Part shown: positions 1 through 46,716 of the stretch, piece by piece
How the letters are laid out: each line of letters starts with the position of its first letter
Position numbering within the stretch: the first letter of the stretch is position 1
NCBI GenBank assembly: GCA_018580065.1
Contig: GCA_018580065.1_4845.1
Length of the DNA stretch: 46,716 nucleotides
Source of the DNA: a phage
Direction: 5' to 3' (one strand)
The notes under the pieces: model-generated
What the model was told of the DNA's origin: nothing
The model's database searches: none
Seen by the model: only the letters and a program-made list of their open reading frames with translations
Program-made: the position numbers and the translations under genes

Positions 1-71
1 AAAAAAAAACTCCTGTCGGAAAGCGAGATGCGCATCTCTCCGATTTCTGTTAGTGGCGTGCGATTGCTCAT
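1..71 (-). CDS. 5' end of putative tail assembly chaperone gene (partial, runs off window start)
   Basis: ATG at 71..69 (minus) with AGGA about 8 nt upstream and an extended -10 at 101-109. The ORF is open to the window edge. If the window is circular it continues in frame into 46716..46080. Confidence 0.4.
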   Translation of the reverse strand, partial: MSNRTPLTEIGEMRISLSDRSFF

Positions 72-100
72 GTTTTGCATCCTGAATTTGACTGATGTTG

Positions 101-109
101 ATTATATCA
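101..109 (-). promoter_or_regulatory. late-type extended -10 promoter (TGATATAAT on minus strand)
   Basis: attatatca on plus strand is the reverse complement of TGATATAAT, about 30 nt upstream of the ATG at 71. Same 9-mer class precedes 8 other minus-strand genes. Confidence 0.45.
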
Positions 110-120
110 TCTCAGTGGTG

Positions 121-149
121 TTGACACCTGTGAGGCGGTGATGTAGATT
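121..149 (+). promoter_or_regulatory. sigma70-like promoter TTGACA-17-TAGATT
   Basis: TTGACA 121-126, 17-nt spacer, TAGATT 144-149. Drives the plus-strand cassette 185-1060. Contains the TGATGTAGATT motif. Confidence 0.6.
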
Positions 150-184
150 CAATTCATCGAAACGAGATATGAATGAGGTGAGTT

Positions 185-478
185 ATGAAAATTAAAATGT
201 TGATTGCATCTGCTTTACTGGTTTCTTCTTTTCCCGTCAGCGCAACTTCAGAGATGTGCAAAAACATCGGAGAAATTGCCATGAATACCGCCGATGTTCG
301 CGACAGCGGTATCAGTAAGAATCTTGCCGAGGTGGTAGTAAAAGGCTCTGCAAAAAACAACGAATCAGCAGAAATAATCGGCCTTGCTATCGTAGAAATG
401 GTTTATGCGCGCAAGGATATGACTAAAGAGCAATTGCGTGATGTGGCTGTTGCTTTGTGCGAAAAGAATGGCATGTAA
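185..478 (+). CDS. small secreted/periplasmic protein (signal peptide)
   Basis: 97-aa ORF. N-terminal MKIKMLIASALLVSSFPVSA is signal-peptide-like. GAGGTG RBS at 174-179. Confidence 0.7.
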   Translation: MKIKMLIASALLVSSFPVSATSEMCKNIGEIAMNTADVRDSGISKNLAEVVVKGSAKNNESAEIIGLAIVEMVYARKDMTKEQLRDVAVALCEKNGM

Positions 479-510
479 TATAAACAAGTTATTAACAGTT
501 GAGGTTAGCT

Positions 511-705
511 ATGGACGTTGTTATTTTGTTGCTTTTCGCTGGATTGGTTATATTTGCTTATCTTCTCCCGTCATTTGTGGCATTGCAAAGAAAGCACACA
601 AATGCGACCGCAATCTGTGTATTGAATATTCTTGTCGGATGGAGCTTTGTTGGGTGGGTTGCAGCACTTGTTTGGGCGTTAGTTAACAGTGGCGACAAGA
701 AATGA
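511..705 (+). CDS. superinfection-immunity (Imm_superinfect-like) inner membrane protein
   Basis: Motif YLLPSFVALQRKH...NILVGWSFVGWVAALVWA matches the signature of the small Imm superinfection family. Two TM segments. ATG 511 follows a GAGGT RBS. Confidence 0.7.
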   Translation: MDVVILLLFAGLVIFAYLLPSFVALQRKHTNATAICVLNILVGWSFVGWVAALVWALVNSGDKK

Positions 706-845
706 ACGAGCAAACAAAAGCAGACCTGATTTTCTACACTGATCTGTATGTCGATGCAGGTTACGACTATGAAGAAGCCGAACGCATGGCGAAAGATTTG
801 CTTCGTGTGATTGGTGTGATTTTTGAAGAGGATAAGGTCATATGA
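702..845 (+). CDS. hypothetical acidic 47-aa protein
   Basis: ATGA overlaps at both ends (702-705 and 842-845) suggest translational coupling. Below the ORF-track size cutoff; translated by hand. Confidence 0.5.
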   Translation: MNEQTKADLIFYTDLYVDAGYDYEEAERMAKDLLRVIGVIFEEDKVI

Positions 846-1060
846 AAATATCGCTAATTGATGACAAATGTGTATTAAATGCTGTAGGAAAGATGCTTCA
901 TGGAGAGCCTACATATTACATCAGAAACCTGCTTAGCTATACATATCCTGGGATTGACACGCCGTCAGTTCTTAGGAAGTTAAAATATATGGAAAAGAGA
1001 GGCTTAGTAAGAATGGTAAGAAGCCCAAACTTACTTAATAATATTAGCTGGACTAAGTAA
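842..1060 (+). CDS. hypothetical protein, possible winged-helix
   Basis: 72-aa ORF coupled to the upstream ORF. LRKLKYMEKRGLV segment is wHTH-like. Followed by a terminator. Confidence 0.6.
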   Translation: MKISLIDDKCVLNAVGKMLHGEPTYYIRNLLSYTYPGIDTPSVLRKLKYMEKRGLVRMVRSPNLLNNISWTK

Positions 1061-1062
1061 AC

Positions 1063-1088
1063 AAAGCCCCTTTCGGGGCTTTTTCTTT
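1063..1088. terminator. rho-independent terminator (bidirectional position)
   Basis: Stem AGCCCC/GGGGCT, loop TTTC, T-run. Lies between convergent genes 842-1060 (+) and 1090-1806 (-). Confidence 0.8.
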
Positions 1089-1089
1089 A

Positions 1090-1806
1090 TCATGATACGG
1101 TGCACGCCGTGCTGATGATAATTTCAGGGTCGGTAGATGAGTCCGTCACTGTGACTGTATACACGCCAGCAGTTGGGCTTGCCAGTGATGCGCCAGACTC
1201 ACCACCAACAACCACACCATCTTTGCGCCAAACGTAGGTGTATGGTGCGACACCACCTTCAACAGCAACAGTTAACTGGCTGCCAGTGCTGCCAGTTGAT
1301 TGCAGGTCGGTGGTGAACTTCAGTGGCTCAAGGCTTTCGACGGTAACGCTGTCAGAATCGTAAACCTTGAACTCAAGGCTGCCAGTGACGATGTCGTTCG
1401 TGCCACCTTCGTAGCTGATGCTGGTAATGTTGCAGTACGCGGTAACGATAGTTGCACCAGTCACCTCGCGTACCCACAAAGAAGGCTGGCGACGCGCTTT
1501 CAGTTCAGTGGCGTAAATCTCAACCAGACGATGGAAGCCAAACTCATCGCTCGGGTCATTCTTGCGGATTTCCACTTCTGCGCTGATGGTCATATCAGAG
1601 CTGGTAACGAGAGTGGAAACAAAACCTCCAGCGGTATCCGCTTCAGACGTGGTAGTCTGCGGAGAGTAGTCAACACCTTTGCTGGTGGTTGAACCTAAAT
1701 ACTTCCAGTCTTCTGCATCAGGAACTGCGTCACCGCACCCTTCAGCAAGGAACAGTCGGGTCATGCGACCGACCAGAGCACCCTTATCATTTGCACAAAT
1801 AGCCAT
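1090..1806 (-). CDS. major tail protein with C-terminal Ig-like domain
   Basis: 238 aa. The C-terminal ~70 aa (APYTYVWRKDG...YTVTVTD) looks like a Big_2/Ig-like domain typical of siphovirus major tail proteins. Position in the tail module. Confidence 0.8.
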   Translation of the reverse strand: MAICANDKGALVGRMTRLFLAEGCGDAVPDAEDWKYLGSTTSKGVDYSPQTTTSEADTAGGFVSTLVTSSDMTISAEVEIRKNDPSDEFGFHRLVEIYATELKARRQPSLWVREVTGATIVTAYCNITSISYEGGTNDIVTGSLEFKVYDSDSVTVESLEPLKFTTDLQSTGSTGSQLTVAVEGGVAPYTYVWRKDGVVVGGESGASLASPTAGVYTVTVTDSSTDPEIIISTACTVS

Positions 1807-1857: not shown

Positions 1858-1886
1858 TTGACAGTGATTATTTTGTGGTGTAGATT
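1858..1886 (+). promoter_or_regulatory. sigma70-like promoter TTGACA-17-TAGATT
   Basis: TTGACA 1858-1863, 17-nt spacer, TAGATT 1881-1886. Near-duplicate of the promoter at 121-149. Confidence 0.6.
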
Positions 1887-15053: not shown

Positions 15054-15076
15054 AGCCCCTTCACGGGGCTTTTTTA
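15054..15076. terminator. rho-independent terminator between convergent operons
   Basis: Stem GCCCC/GGGGC, loop TTCAC, T6 run. Confidence 0.8.
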
Positions 15077-15319
15077 TTGGAAGTTGTCACGATACCATCC
15101 CTGCCAATCGTAAATAGTCATCTTCCTTTTGGTAGCGCACTCCGTATTCTGGTTTTCTATAACAATGCTCTCATCGCTGTTTTTCGGTGCCACTTTCGAC
15201 AATTCGCACACCTCCCCCAACATTTCTGCTGACGGCTGAGTCTGCGTTGAGAGCTGATTGGCGCAACCGGATATAGTCATCATCAAAAGTGCAAACGGTA
15301 CGGTTCTGGTCGGAGACAT
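15074..15319 (-). CDS. o-spanin (Rz1-like outer membrane lipoprotein), overlapped architecture
   Basis: Lipobox LMMTISG-C after a hydrophobic leader. Starts inside the i-spanin gene in another frame and extends beyond it. Confidence 0.7.
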   Translation of the reverse strand: MSPTRTVPFALLMMTISGCANQLSTQTQPSAEMLGEVCELSKVAPKNSDESIVIENQNTECATKRKMTIYDWQGWYRDNFQ

Positions 15320-15560
15320 ATTTCACCACATCGCGATAAATGGTTTTGTATTTAGTTTCGGTCACCACGCGCACCTGTTGGGATTGCGCGGTTGACTTTG
15401 CCTGTTTGTTTTCTGCGTTCTGTTTGCGCTTGGCGGCATCAAGATTGACCTTATCACTATGAGCATACCATCCTTTCAGGTAGCCAGCGCCAAATAATAG
15501 CGAACCAATAGCAATGCCGGTCAATAGCAGAATTATAATTAATTTAACTTTTACCATCAT
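15171..15560 (-). CDS. i-spanin (Rz-like)
   Basis: N-terminal TM (LIIILLLTGIAIGSLLFGAG), then a charged coiled-coil periplasmic domain. Position after the holin. Confidence 0.75.
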   Translation of the reverse strand: MMVKVKLIIILLLTGIAIGSLLFGAGYLKGWYAHSDKVNLDAAKRKQNAENKQAKSTAQSQQVRVVTETKYKTIYRDVVKYVSDQNRTVCTFDDDYIRLRQSALNADSAVSRNVGGGVRIVESGTEKQR

Positions 15561-15780
15561 TGCGCAGCCTCCGGTTTTCCTTCCTCATGCCGTGCATCTT
15601 GCCGAGAATACCAACCAGCATGATTGAATAGCTCACACCTTTGACCACGATTGGCGGCAGCGCTGCTTTCAGGTCGTCCGGCATCATTACCCACACATGC
15701 ATCATTGCGTCAGGCCATAGTTGCAACAGTGAGCAGAACGAAATCCACGCGCCGAGCAGCCAGTTGCTTAGCTTTTTCAT
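15544..15780 (-). CDS. holin (two TM, class II-like)
   Basis: 78 aa, two hydrophobic segments, highly charged C-terminus RKENRRLRNDGKS. Adjacent to the endolysin. Confidence 0.75.
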   Translation of the reverse strand: MKKLSNWLLGAWISFCSLLQLWPDAMMHVWVMMPDDLKAALPPIVVKGVSYSIMLVGILGKMHGMRKENRRLRNDGKS

Positions 15781-16241
15781 GTCACAGCCCCGCCAGCATC
15801 CTTGTATACCTGAATCAGCTTATCCAGTTTCTGCTCATGCTGACCATAGCCAGCACCCGGCAATGAAGCCCAGCGGGAACGGCATTTATGGATGGCATCA
15901 GCAATGCGACCAGCCTCGATGTCGGTAGTGGCCTTGCATTCACGGATTAGCTGCATTGCAATGGCATCCTGTGATGCAGGAGAGAAGTCAGGCAGGCGCA
16001 GTTGCTTTTTGTATGCATCATAAAACTTAGCCAGCACCTGATAGCGCCCGGCGGCGGTGGATTTGATGCCCAGCCTAGGCAGACTAATCAGCTTGCGCGG
16101 GTGATCGGAATAGTCAGTAAACAGTGAGCCGCCAACGATCACATCATAACCATGATTATTGGTTTTCTGTCGCCCGTTATCAGTCCCCTCGCTGTACGCC
16201 AGCATATCCAGAAACGCCTTCATGTTTTTGCTAATAGCCAT
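15777..16241 (-). CDS. endolysin, lambda R-like lytic transglycosylase
   Basis: KAFLDMLAYSEGTDNGRQKTNNHGYDVIVGG.LFTDYSDHPR...AGRYQ...WASLPGAGYGQ closely parallels phage lambda R. Confidence 0.9.
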   Translation of the reverse strand: MAISKNMKAFLDMLAYSEGTDNGRQKTNNHGYDVIVGGSLFTDYSDHPRKLISLPRLGIKSTAAGRYQVLAKFYDAYKKQLRLPDFSPASQDAIAMQLIRECKATTDIEAGRIADAIHKCRSRWASLPGAGYGQHEQKLDKLIQVYKDAGGAVT

Positions 16242-16509
16242 ACCAGTAAACCTCTTTTTCAGCTTTGCGTTTTGCCTTATCACCAGTCTTCTCGCACCAC
16301 ACGATGAAATGCGCAACAGCACATGAGAAGCAGCGGAGATTGTGCTTCTTCAGAAGCGTTGATTTACGGAACACGTCAATGCCAATGTCAGTAGCAAGGC
16401 TCGTCAGCGCGTCGAACTGATTCTGTGTCGTCTTGGTAGTGATATAGGGCGATATATCTACGGCATCGGTGATTCCAAGGGTCTCTATGCCGCGTTGCGA
16501 TAGTTTCAT
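16231..16509 (-). CDS. GH24 (T4/P22-type) lysozyme-like remnant lacking the catalytic core
   Basis: QNQFDALTSLATDIGIDVFRKSTLLKK matches the GH24 helix region. The N-terminal E...D...T(IGYGH) catalytic segment is absent. 92 aa versus about 150 in intact enzymes. AGGAGG RBS retained. Confidence 0.55.
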   Translation of the reverse strand: MKLSQRGIETLGITDAVDISPYITTKTTQNQFDALTSLATDIGIDVFRKSTLLKKHNLRCFSCAVAHFIVWCEKTGDKAKRKAEKEVYWYGY

Positions 16510-43737: not shown

Positions 43738-43738
<1 letters not shown>

Positions 43739-46080
43739 TATTCGGTTGCTCTCCGGTTTGCGTTATAGTTTCTGCCAATACTTTGCCCGATTGGTCCATT
43801 GTTCTCAATGTCGCTAACAATGGTCTCAATTGTCACGCTGCCGTCACCATTATCTCTGGCGCTGCTGCTAACCTGCGCTGAGCTGTTATTGATGATGCTA
43901 TTATAAACCACGACGCCACTACCACCTCCGGTAATGTCTTTGTTGCTGATAACGCGACCACTATCGCCCGGTATCATGTACTGGTGACCGTTTGATGCCC
44001 GGAATATCTCAGGCAGGTTATTCTCTCCGACACGGTACATTGAACCTTCCTGTGCGGGGCCACCGTTTTTAAGCGCGCCAGCAATGGATAGTGTTTTTGC
44101 AAGACCAACTGTTGCTGACATTCCTGCCATAGCTGGTGCTGAGTTTGTACCTGCGGTGGCGAGAGAAGTCATTGCTGCTGCTGGAGCCATCGCGGCTGAT
44201 ATCGCTGCCGCCTGAGCCATTGTTGCTGCTGATGCTGCTGCCATTCCAGCCTGACCCATGATTACTGACTGCGCCCACTGGATACCCATTTGAACGAAAG
44301 CATTAATAACGCTGGACAGGATGTTTGAACCAACTGAACGAAGCGCATCTGATACAGACATTGAGCCAGTGAGGATGCCAGTAAGCGCATTTCCAGCGGT
44401 CTGCCCAAAAGCATCAAACGCCGCAGCGGCCGCCTGTGTTGCTGCATTCTGTTGCGACCACTCAGACCACATAGCCTCAAGTCGTTTTTGTCTGTATTGT
44501 TCTTCAATGGTGGCTCTTGTTTGCTGTATCTCTGCCATTTTTTGCGGATACGCCTTGGCATACGCATCCAAATCAGCCATATCTTTTTGATATGACGTTT
44601 CAACAGCAAACATTGGTGAGGTTTGTGATTTTAATGCGCTGTAACCTTTTACTGCATCTATCCTTTTCTTCTCAGCCGCTGCCTGCTCCTTCAGTGCATT
44701 CTTCTGGTCCCAAATCTTAGCGGCGTACTCACCAGCCAGTTTTATTTGCTCCTGAGTGGCGGCCTTGCCAAGCGATTGCTGCGCGTTGAGGATTGCCTGT
44801 TCGCGGGATAACTCGCTGGTAGATGTGGCATTGAGCATGGTTTGCTGGCGTAATTTCTCCAGCTTTTCAGCTACTGATTCAGCTTGTCTTTCTTCGGCGC
44901 TTTTGCCCTTTCCTTTTCCTTTTTTGTCTTTGGTTGGTGCTTGTGCAATCTTCAGGTGTTTTGTTGCTTCAGCCTGTTTCTTTGTCTGCTCGTAACCTTC
45001 TGCTGATGCCTTAACGAATCGCTCAACCTGATCGTTATATTGTTTTTGCTTTTCAATATCGTCATCACCAAAAAGCGCATCAACTCCCATTTGCGCCCAC
45101 GCACCCGGATTTAACTTCGATATAACCGTGGCGAGAGATAAAACCTTATCGCTTGTGCTGGTCGATTTATCACCAAGAAAATCAATGTATTTTGCTAGCT
45201 GGTCGATAATCTCTACCGCTGTTTTTGATGCGCCAGTCGCATCGTTAACAGCAACCACAAGTTTGGAGAATGAAACCTCGAGAGAGCCTACGGCCTGATC
45301 CATTGTGCGAGGAAGTTTTTCAAACTCAGCATTGACGACGCTTGTTCTGTCCTGAATGGCATTTAGCGCATCTTCTGCTGTCAGTTTGCCATCGAGCATT
45401 CTGGCTCGAAGCTCACCCATTGAAATGCCAAGCCCCGCCGCAATTTGGCGTGCAAGTTCAGGCATCTGCTCAAGGATGGAGTTGAACTCTTCCGCACGTA
45501 TTGTGCCAGATGCGATTGACTGACCGAACTGACGTAATGCGTTCGCCATTTCTTCGGTTGATGACCCACCGATTCGACCTATTTTTTGCAGGGTGTCTGT
45601 AAGGTTAAGAACTTGCGCATTTGTTGCGCCAGCCTCTTTCAGTGATGATGTTAATGTCTCCCACAGCTTCGTGGTGTCACTGAGGCTTGCGCCAGTTGTT
45701 GAGGCGATATTTGCCAGTGTGCTGAATGTTTCGTTCGCGGTTTTCGCATCAGTTGACAAGCGAGCAATCCTTGCCTGAAGTTGTGTCATGTTATCGGCAA
45801 CCTCAAGGAATCGCTTTCCCCATTCGATAATCAGTGACACGGATATTGCGCCAGCCAGCATCGACATACTGGTCTTGAGTCCTGAAGCTGCGCCGCCAGC
45901 ATTCTTCATTCCGCTGCCAGCATTTCTGGCGTTTTTATCCAGCTTACCAAGCGCGCTTGTGGTTTTGTTGGTTGATGATTCAAGGTCATCTAAAGTCTTA
46001 TTGGCTGTTGTCGCGCCAGCTTTCAGGCCTTTAACATCCATCCCGACTTCATAGACAATTCCGCCGACTTCTTCAGCCAT
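43738..46080 (-). CDS. tail tape measure protein
   Basis: 780 aa, Ala/Gln/Gly-rich, long helical segments, hydrophobic GMAAASAATMAQAAAISAAMAPAAAM stretch. Confidence 0.9.
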
Positions 46081-46716
46081 TATGTATTCCTCGCTTTTTT
46101 CGCTTTGCGTTCAGCCAGTGCCTTCATGCGCTCACGGTCTGCTTTAGCCTGATCGTACTCTGCCGCGCGCTCTTCTTTCGTTAACCCTTTCGGCTCTGGA
46201 TATTTATTCTTAATCATCATCTGAAACTCTGTCATGGACAGGTTTTCTGCCTCATCGCGCGTCATGTCGAAATGCGTGCGTGCTGAGATAATGTATTGCG
46301 ACGCATGAAACTCATTTGTGGTTTTCTTGCCCTGCTCTTCCAGACGCTCAGGTACTTTGAGTGGTGACTTGCCAATGATGCCATGCTGCATCAGGTTGCG
46401 CGCAATAATAATAATGTCGCTCACTGGCATGATGCCGGGAACGTATCGCACGCCGCGCGGCGTTGGCTTCCAGCCACCAATCAGCACAGAAATATCATCT
46501 TCACAGCATGACTGCATTACGATATAGGCCGCACTCAGTACATGGCGACCATACACTGGTTTGCTGATTGTCTTCATAACCTGCATCTGCGCGCCAAATG
46601 GCAGGTATTCGACGTGCTGCAGCGGCGCAACATAATCAATGCCATTGAGCTTAGCGTATACCTCAACGATTTCCTTTGGTGTGCCAATTTCATTCATTGC
46701 GCGAAATGATGGCTTG
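46080..46716 (-). CDS. tail assembly chaperone (putative); ORF open to window end
   Basis: Directly upstream of the tape measure gene (TAATG overlap). The reading frame stays open from 46697 to 46716 and matches the frame of 71..1 if the sequence is circular. Confidence 0.6.
   Translation of the reverse strand, partial: KPSFRAMNEIGTPKEIVEVYAKLNGIDYVAPLQHVEYLPFGAQMQVMKTISKPVYGRHVLSAAYIVMQSCCEDDISVLIGGWKPTPRGVRYVPGIMPVSDIIIIARNLMQHGIIGKSPLKVPERLEEQGKKTTNEFHASQYIISARTHFDMTRDEAENLSMTEFQMMIKNKYPEPKGLTKEERAAEYDQAKADRERMKALAERKAKKARNT

Follow-up and report, generated by a model that had tools for sequence, protein, structure and literature searches.

The locus described here raises the question of why a small group of genes with a promoter and terminator of its own lies on the opposite strand within a phage tail operon, and what the membrane protein encoded in it does. 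The window, by which the whole stretch of DNA analysed is meant (46,716 bases), holds the complete genome, circularly permuted, of a small siphovirus of the Skatevirus type, one of the Skate-like phages of Salmonella/E. coli; the element in question is a plus-strand cassette of four closely packed open reading frames (ORF1 to ORF4) at 72-1090, flanked by the major tail protein gene on one side and the chaperone/tape-measure genes on the other and antisense to both. With moderate confidence, the locus is read as an antisense accessory cassette in which ORF2 would act like the superinfection-exclusion protein Imm of phage T4, at the tape measure protein, while ORF1, ORF3 and ORF4 are genes separate from it.

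ORF2 and the antisense cassette

To judge from profile and pairwise searches, ORF2 is a genuine member of the T4 Imm family. It was matched by the Pfam model PF14373 (Imm_superinfect) over model positions 2-42 of 42 with 64.4 bits (E = 8.5e-18; gathering threshold 27.9 bits), T4 Imm itself reaching 58.2 bits on the same model, and by phrog_1039 ('immunity to superinfection') with E = 1.4e-23. BLASTP aligned ORF2 and T4 Imm over 62 residues with 31% identity and 52% positives (E = 3e-11). The first-pass annotation, which was made from the letters alone, had placed 511-705 in this family by its motifs and proposed a hidden Markov model search as a check; the searches bear it out. The family call is not new, as relatives already annotate the gene as a superinfection immunity protein, and phrog_1039 has led to the same reading of an Imm-like Jerseyvirus protein in a published study (PMC9409062). 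The motifs retained are Y17-L-L-P20 ... G43-W-S-F-V-G-W49 ... A-L-V-W-A56, and a hydropathy heuristic marked two hydrophobic segments (residues about 1-26 and 32-60), joined by a basic QRKH loop. R27 and W44 were aligned with R33 and W50 of T4 Imm, both positions being invariant in a five-sequence alignment; in T4 Imm, the exchanges R33A and W50A lower or abolish exclusion activity, and the protein was recently reported both to co-purify with one domain of the T4 tape measure protein, the helical bundle, and to be bound to this domain when imaged (bioRxiv 10.64898/2026.03.06.709160).

Both ORF2 (as predicted) and T4 Imm are small hydrophobic inner-membrane proteins in which the Y-x-x-P, R and G-W...G-W motifs are kept. 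ORF2 is shorter (64 aa (amino acids) versus 83 aa), without the 13-residue C-terminal tail and 5 N-terminal residues of T4 Imm. The T4 gene has its place between genes 42 and 43, whereas ORF2 is antisense in a siphovirus tail operon; T4 imm is an early gene, and early expression of ORF2 is suggested by its sigma-70-type promoter. The window-type imm gene is facultative among close relatives, and its function is predicted by homology.

The cassette and its flanks comprise the following features (positions of the window):

100..112, plus strand: conserved upstream box GATTATATCATCT, 5' of the -35 element, recurring at a second promoter copy and at Klebsiella ORF1 homologs
121..149, plus strand: sigma-70-type promoter TTGACA-17-TAGATT, found by motif scan and conserved across relatives
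185..478, plus strand: ORF1, 97 aa, predicted exported protein
511..705, plus strand: ORF2 (imm), 64 aa, Imm family, with the ribosome-binding site (RBS) GAGG 6 nt (nucleotides) 5' of ATG 511
702..845, plus strand: ORF3, 47 aa, isoelectric point 4.1, acidic, predicted cytoplasmic; its start overlaps the ORF2 stop as ATGA
842..1060, plus strand: ORF4, 72 aa, predicted winged helix; its start overlaps the ORF3 stop as ATGA
1063..1088, both strands: bidirectional intrinsic terminator, with a G+C-rich hairpin at 1063-1082 (8-bp stem with 5 G-C pairs) and a T tract to 1088
1090..1806, minus strand: major tail protein gene, annotated as major tail or tail tube protein in relatives, 91-98% identical across 34 loci
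1..71, then 46716..46080, minus strand: tail assembly chaperone gene, 5' end; the start is at base 71 and the translation matches the 235-aa protein of phage Skate
43738..46080, minus strand: tape measure protein gene (Pfam TMP_3, E = 2e-55)

When the end of the window was joined to its start, the sequence was colinear with phage Skate without a gap, so the chaperone gene runs from 71 to 1 and on from 46716 to 46080 on the minus strand. The major tail protein gene is the upstream flank of the cassette slot in tail-operon direction. Region 1-1200 was matched by 191 phage records, the best being Escherichia phage Bas81, Shigella phage Sf11, Escherichia phage Sa179lw and Salmonella phage Skate at 88-94% identity. 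The phage carrying the cassette is a virulent Skatevirus-type siphophage; relatives are reported as lytic in several papers, and phages of this type are described as O-antigen-dependent siphoviruses of 46-48 kb in the BASEL paper (PMC11990801).

Generic scans were not above chance by count (3 promoter-like sites versus 4.3 expected, 3 terminator-like sites versus 3.0). The exact promoter form, however, occurred twice in the genome versus 0.03 expected, and in an alignment of 19 related loci with the window the -35 and -10 hexamers were invariant while the spacer varied; the promoter at 121-149 is credible for both reasons. Relatives without ORF1 have the same promoter, 5' untranslated region (UTR) and RBS directly in front of imm. 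The terminator, scored on both strands, is common to the cassette (plus strand) and the major tail protein gene (minus strand), and the same site is annotated as two terminators in the phage Skate record. G+C content is 40.2% in the cassette and 35.2% in ORF4, versus 45.9% in the genome.

The cassette is thus a modular accessory unit placed antisense in the tail operon. A plus-strand cassette with promoter and terminator inside the minus-strand tail operon had been described by the first-pass annotation, and all its features were found at the coordinates listed above. Its label moron also suits the conserved promoter, the terminator, the lowered G+C content and the presence or absence of genes among relatives, although that term was coined for prophage-expressed genes, whereas the relatives of this phage are reported as lytic. 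What does not stand is the presentation of the cassette as a discovery, since its genes were already annotated in Skate, Bas81 and Sf11. The cassettes of Skate (CPT_Skate_057-060), Bas81, Sf11, Sa179lw and KFS-SE2 share slot, promoter and terminator with the window and encode ORF1 ('Export Related?'), imm ('superinfection immunity protein') and ORF3 at 85-100% protein identity; they differ in the fourth gene, which is DUF551 or another small gene in place of the winged-helix ORF4.

Slot content among relatives and the exported protein ORF1

For a census of the slot, 34 related loci were sampled in IMG/VR with the major tail protein as a neutral anchor, and slot content was distributed as follows:

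ORF1 + imm + ORF3: 13/34 loci
imm + ORF3: 13/34 loci
ORF1 or a Vi II-E1-type ORF1-like gene, + ORF3: 8/34 loci
neither ORF1 nor imm: 0/34 loci

ORF1 and imm are therefore independent modules that are gained and lost separately. Imm-less phages lack a clean 214-nt segment (RBS and gene of imm) that reaches exactly from the ORF1 stop to the ORF3 ATG; in other relatives ORF1 is cleanly absent and imm sits straight behind the 5'UTR of the cassette. No member of the ORF1 family was found within the 40 kb examined of phage ZCEC08. Klebsiella relatives carry imm-ORF3 in the tail slot while an ORF1 homolog is found elsewhere, and in Klebsiella phage KP591P3 and the Vibrio Roufvirus pYD38-A the tail slot is filled by a gene of the Imm family. 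The first position of the slot has a further variant: in one imm-carrying relative (L077, 5607-5888, plus strand), ORF1 is replaced by a 93-aa ORF that is unrelated to it and has a hydrophobic anchor at its C-terminus.

ORF1 is an exported protein by its sequence features: an MKIK n-region and a 12-residue hydrophobic core are followed by the cleavage motif VSA|TS, and the Vi II-E1 homolog VIP0031, whose N-terminus is near-identical, is annotated with a signal peptide predicted by SignalP. The signal peptide called in the first-pass annotation agrees with this n/h/c pattern and with the annotation of the homolog. ORF1 was matched by phrog_2315, a family annotated as of unknown function, and its family is very narrow (10 clusters at E <= 0.001 among 1.84 billion representative proteins); a word-indexed search returned close relatives only, on contigs of up to about 51 kb. 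Within the family, C25, A36, R39, D40, G42 and C92 are invariant and Y74 is nearly so, with the motif A-x-x-R-D-x-G. The AlphaFold2 model has a mean predicted local distance difference test score (pLDDT) of 84, with 65 residues at pLDDT >= 90 and block averages of 85-98 from residue 31 on; its helices at 18-40, 45-55, 60-75 and 81-94 would form a four-helix mature domain. The model showed no similarity to any solved fold. Two distant homologs lay on a 3-kb contig with a VWA gene and on a bacterial chromosome, neighbourhoods that gave no functional hint. At about 40 Klebsiella-phage loci the ORF1 homolog adjoins the endolysin gene and is divergently transcribed from it behind the same promoter architecture, and box GATTATATCATCT was also found upstream of ORF1 homologs in Klebsiella phages. 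Two further identities proposed for ORF1 were rejected: hhalign found no relation to a T4 RI-like antiholin, and a Cor/Llp-type lipoprotein was discarded for want of a lipobox, the invariant cysteine lying 4-5 residues past the predicted cleavage site with charged residues before it.

Sp of T4 (spackle, gp61.3) is, like ORF1, a 97-aa precursor with an N-terminal signal peptide, a trait shared by many unrelated proteins, and the target of Sp is the gp5 tail lysozyme. The idea that ORF1 in the periplasm, in the manner of Sp, and Imm in the inner membrane form a two-layer superinfection-exclusion system was put forward by the first-pass annotation, and we consider it unlikely. Both genes are co-transcribed in the window phage, with an exported ORF1 and a membrane-bound Imm, which counts in its favour. 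The absence of a 'neither' class (0 of 34 versus 3.1 expected under independence) would likewise fit interchangeable or additive functions, but with a Poisson p of about 0.045 that ignores shared ancestry it is a weak hint, and the sole one, of a similar need served by ORF1 and imm. In a survey of 55 diverse viral Imm-family loci, signal-peptide-like neighbours were in slight excess by a crude heuristic (6/51 versus 38/652 in the background), which points the same way; a general tie of Imm-family genes to exported neighbours or to tape-measure genes was rejected from this survey, the excess being weak in the first case and the second applying to a minority only. Against the two-layer system stands the lack of any similarity between ORF1 and Sp, which the first-pass annotation had itself remarked on: BLASTP gave E = 21, hhalign of the ORF1 family profile with Sp aligned only 18 signal-peptide columns (probability 19.7%), and the two folds were not similar. 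Nor is the pair conserved or co-inherited, since imm occurs alone in 13/34 loci and ORF1 alone in 8/34, and the Klebsiella homolog beside the endolysin gene is unlinked from imm. A counterpart of the gp5 tail lysozyme was not identified in the one protein scanned, the tape measure protein, which matched TMP_3/PhageMin_Tail only. Since ORF1 and imm come and go as independent modules, the two-layer idea lacks support; ORF1 is no obligate partner of Imm, and by none of the tests applied is it an analogue of Sp. ORF1, ORF3 and ORF4 are separate accessory genes that share a transcription unit with imm.

The tape measure protein as candidate target

In the reading that we favour, host RNA polymerase would read the cassette from the promoter at 121-149 and stop at the terminator at 1063-1088; since the cassette has its own sigma-70-type promoter and a bidirectional terminator, it would be made independently of the late tail transcript, and probably early. 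The Imm protein would then insert into the inner membrane, bind the tape measure protein of an incoming phage at its membrane-active part, as in T4, and so keep later-arriving phages from opening their DNA conduit. The tape-measure gene lies about 1.1 kb from imm on the circular map, and its product has a long Ala/Gly/Met-rich, hydrophobic C-terminal stretch (residues about 560-690) of the kind that would be expected for membrane insertion.

A precedent for this arrangement is gp15 of HK97, a small inner-membrane exclusion protein encoded by an independently transcribed tail-operon insert next to the tape-measure gene, whose inhibition depends on the tail region of the incoming phage according to HK97/HK022 tail-region swaps (PMC3594210); interaction of gp15 with the tape measure protein is stated in the T4 preprint (bioRxiv 10.64898/2026.03.06.709160). 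Architecture and likely logic appear analogous to those of the ORF2 cassette. The differences are that gp15 (YebO-like) belongs to an unrelated protein family, that gp15 is a prophage product, HK97 being temperate, and that the HK97 insert lies between chaperone and tape-measure genes, whereas the window cassette has the major tail protein gene on one side and the chaperone gene on the other. Imm-family genes were also found antisense within about 1.2 kb of the tape-measure gene in several further lineages of siphoviruses, including a few metagenomic contigs. The imm gene of the Nonanavirus Bas82 is in the HK97-like slot: in this Escherichia phage (L149, 4489-4668), whose group is distinct from Skatevirus, Imm-family and endonuclease genes were seen antisense between the chaperone and tape-measure genes. 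The linkage of Imm-family genes to the tape-measure gene is recurrent, not general.

Several points weigh against an Imm-like action of ORF2 at the tape measure protein. In 23 relatives, distances between Imm variants were uncorrelated with those between tape measure proteins (Mantel r = -0.08, p = 0.74). Of the 55 diverse Imm-family loci, the majority lay away from any tape-measure gene, with unrelated neighbours such as helicase, terminase, integrase or methylase genes, and PF14373-like modules with two transmembrane segments (2-TM) also occur outside exclusion contexts. The exclusion function of siphovirus Imm homologs is assigned by homology only, and the early timing by promoter type only.

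Mean amino-acid distance was 0.34 for the tape measure protein (maximum 0.63) versus 0.072 for Imm, 0.039 for the major tail protein and 0.026 for the chaperone. Imm and the tape measure protein were tried as a co-evolving pair and rejected, the Mantel correlation being flat for the whole protein and for 100-column windows alike. With no covariation, and with Imm varying far less than the tape measure protein, a specific co-evolving pair is unsupported; should that protein be the target, what Imm recognises in it must be a conserved feature.

Differences in tape measure protein length were also recorded. The protein ranges from 778 to 1097 aa among otherwise near-identical relatives (window gene 43738-46080; loci L069-L093). 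All six imm-less relatives (L012, L014, L017, L022, L025 and L026) have long tape measure proteins of 816-1097 aa, and 17 of the 24 imm-carrying relatives (L069-L093) have the 778-792-aa type; a one-sided Fisher test gave p of about 0.003 for samples that were differently anchored and with phylogeny ignored.

It is quite unlikely that the role of ORF2 is something other than DNA exclusion, be it that of a generic small membrane module or the block of a target other than the tape measure protein. PF14373 is indeed broad: many of its members, from bacteria and phages alike, are uncharacterised, and their gene neighbourhoods differ widely; ORF2 was weakly matched by the 2TM-TIR defence model of PADLOC (E = 0.0045), and covariation with the tape measure protein is missing. 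Yet T4 Imm, the only characterised member, is an exclusion protein, the residues that it needs are conserved in ORF2, and the gene recurs beside tape-measure genes in several siphovirus lineages.

The slot as a whole might be a dedicated hot spot for entry-interference genes, with the ORF1 family as an unrecognised periplasmic exclusion factor that is interchangeable with or additive to Imm. This suggestion is derived from the 34/34 relatives that keep ORF1 or imm behind the same promoter and is held to be quite improbable; if it were true, the variability of the tape measure protein (34% mean divergence versus about 3% for its neighbours) would reflect an arms race. That ORF1 instead serves the lytic cycle of its own phage from the periplasm, for instance as a regulator of lysis timing or one related to the cell wall, and merely shares the imm transcription unit, is very unlikely: its homolog stands directly beside the endolysin gene, behind the same type of promoter, in the Klebsiella phages, and export together with two invariant cysteines would be expected of a stable periplasmic protein, but the homolog is divergent from the lysis genes and not part of them, ORF1 is dispensable (missing in 13/34 Skatevirus-like loci and in the 40 kb examined of ZCEC08), and it is unlike T4 RI antiholin or any solved fold.

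Other genes of the region and biological meaning

ORF3 was matched by phrog_17424 (E = 1e-35) and detected in 34/34 relatives; it is the constant gene of the slot, to which ORF1 and imm are facultative additions. A recognisable ORF3 homolog also follows imm in Klebsiella phage KP591P3. In Salmonella phage Vi II-E1 (L003, 2846-3025), the minus-strand 'hypothetical membrane protein' VIP0030 overlaps a plus-strand ORF3 homolog, which has 89% identity and was seen again in the same genome at L051 (5352-5495); the published VIP0030 annotation is probably on the wrong strand.

ORF4 is predicted by its structural model to be a stand-alone winged-helix protein. The AlphaFold2 model (pLDDT 90.3) has helices at 8-14, 24-31 and 40-52 and strands at 57-60 and 68-71, an H-H-H-hairpin order, and Foldseek returned the DNA-binding domains of Nur, Fur, PerR, Zur and MarR proteins with template modelling (TM) scores, TMq, of 0.63-0.72, a probability of 1.00 and a best E of 1.7e-3. 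Pfam MarR matches were below threshold, and sequence searches with ORF1, ORF2 and ORF4 against chains of the Protein Data Bank gave nothing significant, with a weak match of ORF4 to the Fur-like 3eyy. The two coupled small ORFs, the last with a winged helix-turn-helix likeness, that closed the cassette in the first-pass annotation were recovered in the ATGA overlaps and in this model, with TM of about 0.7 to Fur/PerR/MarR domains. ORF4 was absent from all 34 Skatevirus-like loci, where DUF551 or other small genes take its place at the 3' end of the cassette; proteins sharing 59-75% identity with it are encoded by Salmonella and Klebsiella phages of other genera, under labels that vary between ArsR-like, MarR-like and Fur-like. 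With its low G+C content (35%), the gene has the look of a recent mosaic gain at this variable end.

The second promoter copy (TTGACA-17-TAGATT at 1858-1886, plus strand, with a GATTATATCA box and with box GATTATATCATCT upstream) is antisense to structural genes. Downstream of it lie 434 nt of non-tRNA sequence, a tRNA-Met(CAT) at 2327-2403 and a terminator at 2409-2429. The 434-nt stretch (1893-2326) folds far better than shuffled sequences (-145.5 kcal/mol, z = -3.7) and was matched by no Rfam family. Conservation in relatives is confined to 80 nt at its start and to ~100 nt next to the tRNA, the latter with a 13-bp hairpin, and small minus-strand ORFs have been placed in the mosaic middle by other annotators. 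A conserved structured RNA at 1893-2326 was rejected on account of the missing Rfam match and the mosaic middle part.

In the lysis region, two adjacent lysozyme-like ORFs were observed on the minus strand at 15777-16509. The 92-aa ORF at 16231-16509 matches only the C-terminal half of a Klebsiella-phage endolysin and is followed by a full-length endolysin-like ORF at 15777-16322, the start of which is probably near 16244; the pair may represent a split or partly replaced endolysin. Holin-like (15544-15780), Rz-like (15171-15560) and lipobox-bearing Rz1-like (15074-15319) ORFs were found next to them.

The Imm call as such is routine homology annotation and already public, and the more original Sp/Imm-like pairing does not hold up. 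Exclusion genes affect interference among the phages of a cocktail, and relatives of the window phage have been proposed for Salmonella/E. coli biocontrol and as therapy candidates. Siphovirus Imm homologs would show whether the tape-measure-binding mechanism of T4 Imm extends beyond contractile-tailed phages, and the Skate-like relatives offer a natural experiment for this, as they carry either gene alone, imm or ORF1, or the two together behind a single promoter, beside a hypervariable tape-measure gene.

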